1,421 nucleotides of DNA from Naegleria gruberi. Its lineage: Eukaryota. The translations under genes were made by a program, and so were the position numbers. Location: the NCBI GenBank assembly GCA_000004985.1, contig GG739428.1; one strand, given 5' to 3'. The notes beneath the pieces were generated by a model. It was not told the origin of the DNA. It ran no database searches and was given only the letters and a program-made list of their open reading frames with translations. Every line of letters begins with the position of its first letter. Positions within the stretch are counted from its first letter, which is position 1. Positions 1 to 1,421 of this stretch are shown in pieces.

Positions 1-380
1 AATTTGATTATAAATATAGTGACTTTCGGAATTCACTTTTTTTACATTCGATTTAGACGATTTAATGGTAGTATAATTGAGTATACAGGTCTATTATAAA
101 GAATATATTGGGTAGAAACGGGTTAATTTTTTTAATCGATTTTATGCATATATTACAAGAGGAATATAATGTTTTACAGTATTTGGTTATTTTAAAATCG
201 GCTAGAAATGAAGTGAGGACAAAAATTTTAAAAAATTTCAGTCAAAAATATGGTCATATTTATCAGTAAACTATATCTTGTGGATTTATATATTAATAGA
301 TTTTTCGTTTTTGACACCTCTATTGTAAACACTATAAGATTATTTATTTATAGTTATTTCCATATCTACTTTCGAGTTCA
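1..380. other. AT-rich intergenic (non-transcribed?) spacer, about 25% G+C
   Basis: Hand count of 1-60 gives 15/60 G+C. It contains A/T tracts and an A-tract palindrome, aaaattttaaaaaattt, at about 221-238. There is no ORF longer than a few dozen codons and no rRNA- or tRNA-like conservation. Confidence 0.5.
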
Positions 381-410
381 TCGACCCCCCCGAAATGTCT
401 GAACTTCAGT
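360..410 (+). promoter_or_regulatory. Candidate RNA polymerase I core promoter / transcription start region at the AT-to-GC composition boundary (speculative)
   Basis: This is inference only. A sharp boundary (C7 run at 385-391) is followed by the 11-bp palindrome ctgaacttcag (399-409) and aggatcct (430-437), about 870 bp upstream of 18S. Pol I promoters are lineage-specific, so no consensus can be matched by eye. Confidence 0.15.
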
Positions 411-616
411 TCCTAACCTTGCGGACAGCAGGATCCTAAGGGATTACCCTCATCGAGGGTATCAACGCCCTTCGGAGCCCCCAATGGGTCAACCACCCGT
501 TGGGGCCTGCTGTTCACACCGGGGGTCGGTAACCCTCCCCGCCTGATGAAGGGCGGTGGGCACCCCCAGCCCTTGCGGCTGGGAGCCAAGGCAGCGCGTA
601 ACTGCGGGGCGCTGCT

Positions 617-683
617 AACCAACCAACCAAACCTGACCCGCCACCAGCCAACCAGCCCACCAGCCAGCCAACCACCAGCCACG
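617..683. repeat. Low-complexity C/A-rich microsatellite-like tract: (AACC)n followed by degenerate CCAGCC(A/C)A repeats
   Basis: Directly seen: aaccaaccaaccaaacc at 617-633, then ccaccagccaaccagcccaccagccagccaaccaccagccacg at about 641-683. This stretch contains almost no T on the + strand. Confidence 0.7.
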
Positions 684-898
684 CGCCCTCTGGCCCACCC
701 AGGCCACGCGTGCGGTCGAGGCACCCTACAGCCAGCCGGCAGAACCCACGGCCATTCCCACGGCCAACGGTCCAACCCGCTGCCAGTCCTGACCCCAGGG
801 CTGTCCAGGGAGCCTCCCGCGTGTGTGACCCGGGAGCCTAGGAGGGCCCCCCAACCGTCCGGCCCAACCGCTGCCCCTGGGGCCGATTCAGATACCTC

Positions 899-992
899 AA
901 CCGCAGCCTTTTGGGCTGCCCACAGCCAAACCGCAGCCTTTTGGGCTGCCCAGATCCTACCAGCCTACCACCGCAGCCCTTTGGGCTGCCCT
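899..992. repeat. Tandem array of 3 hairpin-forming repeats with core CCGCAGCC(T/C)TTTGGGCTGCCC
   Basis: Directly seen: the core occurs at 901-922, 931-952 and 971-992 (ccgcagccttttgggctgccc twice, then ccgcagccctttgggctgccc). Start-to-start spacing is 30, 30 and 40 bp. Copies 1 and 2 extend to near-identical 30-mers, aaccgcagccttttgggctgccca(c/g)a. Each core is an inverted repeat, GCAGCC-ttttg-GGCTGC, with a 6-bp stem. Confidence 0.8.
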
Positions 993-1060
993 ACCACCAC
1001 AGCCAGCGAAGCCTGGACCGAGGGGAAACCCTTGACCCGGGACGAGCCAGCTGTTTTTCA

Positions 1061-1257
1061 ATATTGATTACCCGCATTAAGCGGGAAACCCTCGCAAGAG
1101 GAACCCCATACCTCAGAGACCCAAACGATTCATTCGTTTAGGCTCAAATCGAGTTCATAATGGCAAACGGATGGATAGCCAGTAGGTGGTGCAAACCAAC
1201 GAACGCTTGAAATCCAACCGGAGCGCAAACAAGGTAAAACTCGTTTTGCTCCAGTGA
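1061..1257 (+). other. 18S-proximal 5' external transcribed spacer (5' ETS)
   Basis: It lies immediately upstream of, and is contiguous with, the mature 18S 5' end at 1258. Composition is mixed and stop codons are present in all frames. It contains a perfect hairpin, cccgc-attaa-gcggg, at 1071-1085. Its function is inferred from position; no transcript data are available. Confidence 0.6.
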
Positions 1258-1421
1258 TACCTGGTTGATCCTGCCAGTACTATATGCTTGTCTCAAAGCC
1301 TAAGCCATGCAAATGTAAGATCAATCATATGCGGTTTCGGCCGTGTATAATGATAGTCTGTGGAAGGCTCATTATAACAGTTATACTCCTAGCCACTGGA
1401 AAGTTTACAAGGATACCACCG
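1258..1421 (+). rRNA. Nuclear small-subunit (18S-type) rRNA gene, 5' end only (partial; the gene continues past the window end)
   Basis: Directly seen: 1258-1278 tacctggttgatcctgccagt is the universal eukaryotic SSU 5' terminus. It is followed by tatgcttgtctcaaag (the U3 box-A pairing region, conserved), gccatgca, ggctcattataacagttat and aaggata. An archaeal SSU would start attccggttgatcctgccgga and a bacterial one agagtttgatcctggctcag, so this is eukaryotic nuclear. Several otherwise conserved positions are substituted, for example agtactatatgc instead of AGTAGTCATATGC and aaagcctaagcc instead of AAAGATTAAGCC. Confidence 0.9.

Follow-up and report, generated by a model that had tools for sequence, protein, structure and literature searches.

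A conserved two-part element at the AT-to-GC switch of the Naegleria gruberi rDNA plasmid, a candidate RNA polymerase I promoter

Background

Multicopy extrachromosomal ribosomal RNA (rRNA) genes are carried by the ribosomal DNA (rDNA) minichromosome of Tetrahymena and by the rDNA circle of Entamoeba histolytica, and in both molecules the promoter and the replication origin are housed in one 5' spacer. Naegleria likewise has all of its rRNA genes on a closed circular extrachromosomal rDNA plasmid (CERE) of ~14 kb, present at ~4000 copies per cell (PMC5805870), the AT-rich spacer of which must also house the origin. Each CERE circle carries one rDNA unit, and one origin has been mapped on it, whereas the Entamoeba circles use multiple origins (PMC10285105). 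Here we describe a stretch of 1,421 nucleotides (nt) of Naegleria gruberi DNA (contig GG739428.1 of assembly GCA_000004985.1), referred to in its full length as the window, in which an abrupt switch from AT-rich to GC-rich DNA lies upstream of the gene for 18S rRNA. The subject of this report is a short two-part element at that switch, which is a candidate core promoter for RNA polymerase I (Pol I).

Complete CERE sequences are available for strain NEG-M (AB298288) and strain EGB (MG699123), and the published annotation assigns everything outside 18S-28S to 'non-ribosomal sequence' (NRS), listing in it, as a possible gene, an open reading frame (ORF) of 173 amino acids (aa) that is annotated as similar to nothing (PMC5805870). 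The NRS is described in the literature as 'poorly conserved', and a single replication origin has been mapped to somewhere inside a 2.1-kb NRS fragment. In the literature up to 2026, the sequences controlling rRNA transcription and replication of the CERE are stated to be unknown, and undefined promoters are said to hamper genetic tools for N. fowleri. Our literature search found no mapping of a Naegleria Pol I promoter.

Pol I core promoters of the TATA-G type are found in plants, where the initiator is TATATA(A/G)GGG, and in Acanthamoeba castellanii. They lie directly upstream of the rRNA unit and in its orientation, have AT-rich DNA set against the G/C-rich transcribed spacer, and are short, conserved among close relatives and rapidly diverging between distant ones; the Naegleria element resembles them in each of these respects. 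Several Naegleria lineages also read alike at the switch (...TATA/GG), resembling both the plant and the Acanthamoeba form, whereas N. gruberi differs, with TAACCTT/GCGG and a C-run box at about -35. We know of no counterpart for this box. The 5' external transcribed spacer (ETS) of other eukaryotes is, like the putative one described below, fast-evolving, repeat-bearing and strongly folding, with a conserved part of ~200 nt beside 18S, and in those organisms the conserved 3' part carries U3-binding and early processing sites. Compared with them, the contrast in G+C content with the adjoining spacer in N. gruberi (24% vs 67%) and the range of lengths within the genus (283-1758 nt) are large.

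Results and discussion

The window and its composition switch

The window comes from the CERE of N. gruberi, and its sequence is already public. The 5' end of the 18S rRNA is at 1258-1421 on the + strand (Rfam SSU_rRNA_eukarya, 101 bits, E=1e-27), preceded in order by an AT-rich non-ribosomal spacer (1-381), a GC-rich block (382-1053) and a conserved part of the 5' ETS (1054-1257). The 173-aa ORF (546-1067), which is the longest in the window, was found on four independent contigs by exact-sequence look-up and is identical to GenBank BAF74738.1, UniRef A7BJ61_NAEGR, a 'hypothetical protein [Naegleria gruberi]'. In the 23-kb metagenome contig L005 the 18S-5.8S-28S unit recurs with a period of 13,799 nt, which matches a ~14-kb circle assembled past its own end. 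In both L001 and L005 these genes follow the boundary on the same strand, and the sole ORF between has no homologs outside N. gruberi. A previous interpretation made from the letters of the window alone, here called the sequence-only reading, had taken the region for an rDNA spacer; this was right, 18S beginning at 1258, and the molecule is a circular rDNA plasmid and not a chromosomal tandem array.

The G+C content is 0.239 over 1-381 and 0.220 over 332-381, and then becomes 0.900 over 382-391, 0.560 over 382-431, 0.61 over 432-531 and 0.687 over 482-1053, so that the whole block 382-1053 stands at 67%. In a single-change-point likelihood scan, the break fell at 372-382 and raised the log-likelihood by 92. 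The knife-edge change proposed from the letters is therefore real and sharp, but it lands at ~56% G+C, and ~70% is attained only 100 nt later; likewise, the GC-rich stretch proposed for 381-1060 was borne out with somewhat different limits, its end being at ~1053, where the genus-conserved TTTTCAATATTGATTACC starts. Nowhere else on the plasmid does a block reach 65% G+C, and this one adjoins the 18S side. The 380 nt preceding the switch rank among the most AT-rich stretches of the molecule. Base composition and strand skew shift only at the boundary and are uniform from there through the block, as far as the conserved end of the ETS.

A conserved element at the switch

All contigs carrying the 173-aa ORF were from N. 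gruberi and had no comparative power; other lineages were therefore fetched by way of a spurious ORF in the 5' part of 18S, and metagenome and genome collections were scanned for the Naegleria-specific ETS/18S junction to add further lineages. The lineages recovered are 91.8-95.8% identical to N. gruberi in 18S, and upstream of the gene they can be aligned only in the last 200-250 nt before 18S. The primers used in N. fowleri quantitative PCR had no match in any locus recovered, and a scan of viral contigs gave no result.

Using the 3.6 kb upstream of N. gruberi 18S as a BLAST query against the other lineages, with no motif picked beforehand, the boundary was among the few conserved spots, others being the conserved ETS end, a repeated spacer motif and an internal module at 706-825. 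Window positions 409-436 matched L067 and L069 (89% identity, E=3e-4) and positions 381-433 matched L070, in each case at the switch of the other lineage itself; 378-396 matched L055, and 205-490 matched the close relative L062. In an alignment anchored on the switch, these lineages share TCGACCCCCCC, followed after 19-26 nt by TCC TAACCTT/GCGGACAGCAAGA. The invariant columns (alignment A2) are 381, 382, 384-387 and 390 in the first, distal box (the C-box) and 416-418, 420, 423, 425, 426 and 429 in the second, proximal box, which in N. gruberi reads TCCTAACCTT/GCGGACAGCAGGA.

Profile searches gave the same location. A hold-out profile trained on L067, L070 and L055 only, and run against both strands of 18.7 kb of N. 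gruberi plasmid sequence, produced one significant match, at window 374-433 (E=8.8e-7), the next match having E=1.2. Earlier hold-out profiles from few species had been weak for N. gruberi (E ~1), and the species from the metagenome scan were added afterwards. In a leave-one-out analysis of seven lineages, window 376-434 was the sole significant match on the N. gruberi plasmid (E=7e-8), and the top match fell at the switch in L062 (3e-6), L070 (5e-5), group C (0.007) and L067 (0.075). Of the 13 lineage representatives, 9 have an ACCCC box at a distance of 20-70 nt upstream of the switch, with 8.6% expected (binomial P 1.4e-7, for a motif defined post hoc in lineages that are not fully independent), and the switch itself reads ...TATA/GG or ...ATA/CG in groups B-F and H. 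The boundary element is present in one copy on the plasmid and is conserved within an otherwise unalignable spacer, fading in the more distant lineages.

The C7 run at 385-391, which the sequence-only reading had singled out as marking the boundary, is not remarkable by count alone, since 49% of composition-matched shuffles contain a C run of seven or more. Its significance comes instead from the alignment, by which it is the core of the conserved distal box and so a part of the two-part element. The string tcga-ccccccc-gaaatg around it is present as described, but it spans 381-397, one base more than had been given. Immediately after the run, at window 392, N. gruberi contigs are polymorphic for G or A (cccccccG vs cccccccA), a position in the variable spacer between the boxes.

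The two palindromes noticed near the run fared less well: both exist, ctgaacttcag (399-409) as a 5+1+5 inverted repeat and aggatcct (430-437) as a perfect 8-mer palindrome, but such features occur at chance frequency and neither is kept in related species, so they are incidental to the boundary. For perfect 8-bp palindromes the window gives 10 where 8.5 are expected; for 5+1+5 inverted repeats the corresponding figures are 6 and 2.4. At the place of the first, L062 has ctgatcttcag, and L067, L070 and L055 have unrelated sequence; the counterparts of the second are AAGATTT, AAGATCC or AAGAAAT, depending on the species. The second palindrome, AGGATCCT, carries the only BamHI/BstI site of the plasmid, the one GGATCC in 18.7 kb of L005 being at the position that matches window 431. 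The BstI site (BstI is an isoschizomer of BamHI) served to linearize and clone the EGB plasmid (PMC5805870).

A probable Pol I promoter

We consider it probable that the boundary element is a Pol I core promoter, where the 5' ETS begins and transcription is initiated near 418-424. The AT-to-GC switch would then be the junction of the non-transcribed spacer with the rRNA transcription unit, the C-box and the proximal box would form the core promoter, and transcription would start ~30-40 nt downstream of the C7 run. From there, a GC-rich, fast-evolving and structured 5' ETS of ~835 nt would lead into the conserved segment of ~200 nt and then into 18S. This reading is favored because the position and orientation of the element fit, because it is a single copy conserved in an unalignable spacer, and because AT-rich DNA adjoins a G/C-rich spacer that is uniform in composition and skew and folds strongly in the sense direction, with a TATA/G look at the switch of other lineages. 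On this reading the element would bind the Pol I machinery. A Pol I initiation region had been one of two explanations offered from the letters, and it is now the favored one in view of the element, the 14 lineages examined and the RNA of a relative, although the likely start is at ~418-424 and not at the C7 run.

The RNA evidence comes from one ENA project, in which the Illumina adapter is joined directly to the mature 18S 5' end (L044, L048), indicating that the libraries are RNA-derived. In L042, from the same project, the adapter is joined to a point 496 nt upstream of 18S, and the independent Logan contig L047 begins at exactly the same base (-496), where this species reads GTATCTCAGACCAGGTGATTCG. 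Transcripts in that species therefore extend at least 296 nt past the conserved ETS part, so that the variable block is transcribed there and a start at the beginning of the conserved ETS block is ruled out. Among relatives with genomic data, the two nearest to the L042 species show the switch at -529 (L074) and -577 (L064), with which the RNA end is consistent if transcription starts at the switch.

An attempt to map the L042 RNA end to a genomic boundary gave no convincing alignment. Other apparent ends were set aside: the identical -403 starts of three group-B contigs proved to be repeat-induced breaks, and the start of L046 at -200 is possibly a graph break where conserved meets variable sequence. 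Separately, untrimmed adapter on natural RNA 5' ends (L042 1-13; L044 1-33 and 1538-1568; L041, L045 and L048) is usable as a 5'-end map.

A number of observations weigh against the promoter reading. The position of the start is inferred from comparison only. The training windows of the profiles were picked near composition switches after inspection, and the leave-one-out profiles gave no detection in L055, in group B or in groups D-H. Pairwise Smith-Waterman alignments of the boundary windows of N. gruberi, group B and group C did not reach significance by themselves (P ~0.3, 0.6 and 0.03). N. gruberi and its nearest relatives, reading TAACCTT/GCGG, do not have the TATA/GG look of the other lineages. 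The RNA end at -496 lies beside a sequence, CCAGGTGATTCGATA, 10 nt downstream of it, which resembles CCAGGCCATTCGATA, the internal-module motif that the N. gruberi group carries between -430 and -670, and may thus be an early processing site rather than a primary start. Finally, a conserved-looking 5'-terminal hairpin at the predicted start, seen in minimum free energy folds, was dropped as evidence, because random 18-mers from the same spacers form duplexes that are no weaker.

Other explanations of the boundary

The alternative that survives best is that the boundary element is some other cis-acting element of the plasmid and that transcription starts elsewhere, for example in the internal module at ~736-745. 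It could then serve as an upstream control element or spacer promoter, or as a promoter-proximal terminator that stops polymerases coming round the circle; it could also belong to the replication origin or to a fork barrier. In this case 382-735 would be a non-transcribed GC-rich spacer, as in Xenopus. Several points favor this alternative: the single RNA 5' end seen adjoins a motif like that of the internal module, the module is itself conserved at 78-85% identity, one origin has been mapped to the NRS, and the 380 nt before the switch are very AT-rich. However, composition and skew do not change between the boundary and the internal module, and the internal site is GC-rich on both sides, an uncommon setting for Pol I initiation. 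L064 has no match to the internal motif and L074 only a weak one with 2 mismatches, far upstream at -1497, while the switches of these two lineages agree with the distance of the RNA end from 18S. The boundary element and the internal module are dissimilar, so that they are not a pair made up of a spacer promoter and a gene promoter, and no yeast-type autonomously replicating sequence consensus was found in the window or in L005. Taken together, we regard a different cis-acting role as possible but unlikely.

The second explanation offered from the letters, that the GC-rich block is a foreign or recently acquired segment, has to be judged against the other lineages. A GC-enriched block (53-74% G+C, 283-1758 nt) follows a composition switch in 14 of 14 Naegleria lineages sampled, and the blocks of different lineages cannot be aligned with each other. 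C exceeds G on the rRNA-sense strand of the block in 10 of these lineages (GC skew of -0.10 or lower), the other four being near zero, and the contrast is starkest in N. gruberi (27% vs 68%). The sequence-only reading had allowed that related taxa might all have the block with gradual boundaries; all of them do have it, but each is bounded by a composition switch. Two of the Naegleria rDNA-plasmid contigs, L073 (DYOB01000097.1) and L074 (JARLHW010000166.1), had been binned in metagenome-assembled genomes labelled Borreliella garinii and Desulfosporosinus sp., a placement that is contamination of those genomes.

An insertion would account for the extreme contrast (24% vs 67%) and for the ORF inside the block, and an exact 10-bp direct repeat, TCGAGTTCAT (372-381 and 1149-1158), one copy of which ends exactly at the switch, could be taken for its target-site duplication. 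But the block is at the same place throughout the genus, and the second copy of the repeat lies inside the genus-conserved AATCGRGTTYA; since this copy and the 95 nt preceding it (1054-1148) are genus-conserved ETS, the repeat does not represent a target-site duplication. Chance alone would in any case give about one exact 10-mer repeat in 1.4 kb, and another is present in the window (D20). Homologs of the ORF are confined to N. gruberi strains among 5.8 billion proteins, Pfam had no match to it, and plasmid and phage DNA searched with the GC block gave no match either. A foreign origin of the block is therefore very improbable. An assembly chimera of unrelated AT-rich and GC-rich DNA, which the sharpness of the switch had given reason to check for, has virtually no probability left, as the junction is spanned in 10 contigs at 97.6-100% identity (independent JGI, ENA, NCBI and Logan assemblies of different samples) and in two published complete cloned plasmids, one of which was linearized at a BamHI/BstI site 45 nt from the switch.

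The putative 5' ETS and the 173-aa ORF

The features of the window are collected in Table 1. As RNA, 421-1257 folds more strongly in the sense direction (z-score -7.3) than in the antisense direction (-4.0; 20 shuffles each). The internal module stands out within the otherwise unalignable GC-rich spacer, with 85% identity to L062 and 78% to L070 by BLAST, and its motif was found in L062, L067, L069 and L070. In the conserved ETS part, a hairpin at 1090-1101 (CCTC-GCAA-GAGG) keeps its stem, and its loop is GCAA, GAAA or GUAA depending on the lineage. All three forms are GNRA loops, which points to selection acting on the RNA.

The 173-aa ORF is judged to be a non-coding by-product of G+C richness. 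The GC blocks of other species carry ORFs in other frames and on other strands, as expected of stop-poor GC-rich DNA.

Table 1. Features of the 1,421-nt window
Feature	Position	Strand	Remarks
AT-rich spacer	1-381	none	24% G+C; unalignable with other Naegleria species (BLAST matches only to NRS repeats further upstream)
Distal 'C-box' TCGACCCCCCC	381-391	+	contains the C7 run; ~30-40 nt upstream of the predicted start
Inverted repeat CTGAA-C-TTCAG	399-409	none	in the variable spacer between the two boxes; incidental
Proximal box TCCTAACCTT/GCGGACAGCAGGA	411-433	+	candidate core promoter and initiator; predicted start near 418-424
GC-rich hypervariable part of the putative 5' ETS	421-1053	+	~67-69% G+C; rRNA-sense strand with more C than G and more A than T
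AGGATCCT palindrome	430-437	none	in N. gruberi alone, shares bases with the end of the proximal box; palindromic form not conserved
173-aa ORF (BAF74738.1, A7BJ61_NAEGR)	546-1067	+	judged non-coding
CCAACC/CCAGCC short-repeat array	617-681	+	inside the GC block; yields low-complexity cross-species matches
Internal ETS module	706-825	+	possible early processing site; also the alternative position proposed for an RNA 5' end; CCACGGCCATTCCCACGG at 746-763
Three direct repeats of ~30 nt	899-998	+	each a GCAGCC-TTTT-GGGCTGC hairpin; repeat families D1, D3; inverted repeats I5, I6
Genus-conserved 3' part of the 5' ETS	1054-1257	+	begins TTTTCAATATTGATTACC; 14-lineage alignment; BLAST 73-89% identity
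18S rRNA gene, 5' end	1258-1421	+	Rfam match

Other features of the plasmid

Outside the window, a spacer motif, GAACGGCTGCGATTCAGAC, occurs at L002 224-250 and 521-547, that is, 520-820 nt upstream of the boundary. It is also found in L005, L062, L067, L069 and L070, in 1-7 copies, all but one of them on the rRNA-sense strand. In the N. gruberi-like lineages the copies lie 380-1550 nt upstream of the boundary, and in L070 they are spaced by ~90 nt. The motif could be an enhancer, a terminator or an origin-linked repeat.

Downstream of 18S, the internal transcribed spacer 1 of N. gruberi is only ~33 nt long (L001 3448-3480), and both the 5.8S and the 28S 5' end depart strongly from the consensus usual in eukaryotes. 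An ORF of 344-355 aa with a His-Me (I-PpoI-like) homing-endonuclease zinc-loop domain (PF05551) is at L005 3327-4382 and also in L006, L008 and L009. It starts ~600 nt downstream of the 28S 3' end, and each of the four contigs covering it has an intact copy; the paper on the EGB plasmid treats this ORF as a likely pseudogene (PMC5805870).

Conclusions

The outcome of this analysis is a testable candidate promoter of 53 bp, a proposed start of the 5' ETS and a reason to drop the 173-aa ORF as a gene. It amounts to a new annotation of an ordinary kind of element, neither foreign DNA nor a new class of system. More tentatively, TCGACCCCCCC-N19-TCCTAACCTTGCGGACAGCA might be the first heterolobosean Pol I promoter to be identified, in which case the C-run box at ~-35 would be a lineage-specific recognition element; and since the element adjoins the most AT-rich part of the spacer on a circle with one origin, promoter and origin may form one compact control region. 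If this were true, the control region could be used to drive transgenes and to maintain vectors in Naegleria, the pathogen N. fowleri among them.

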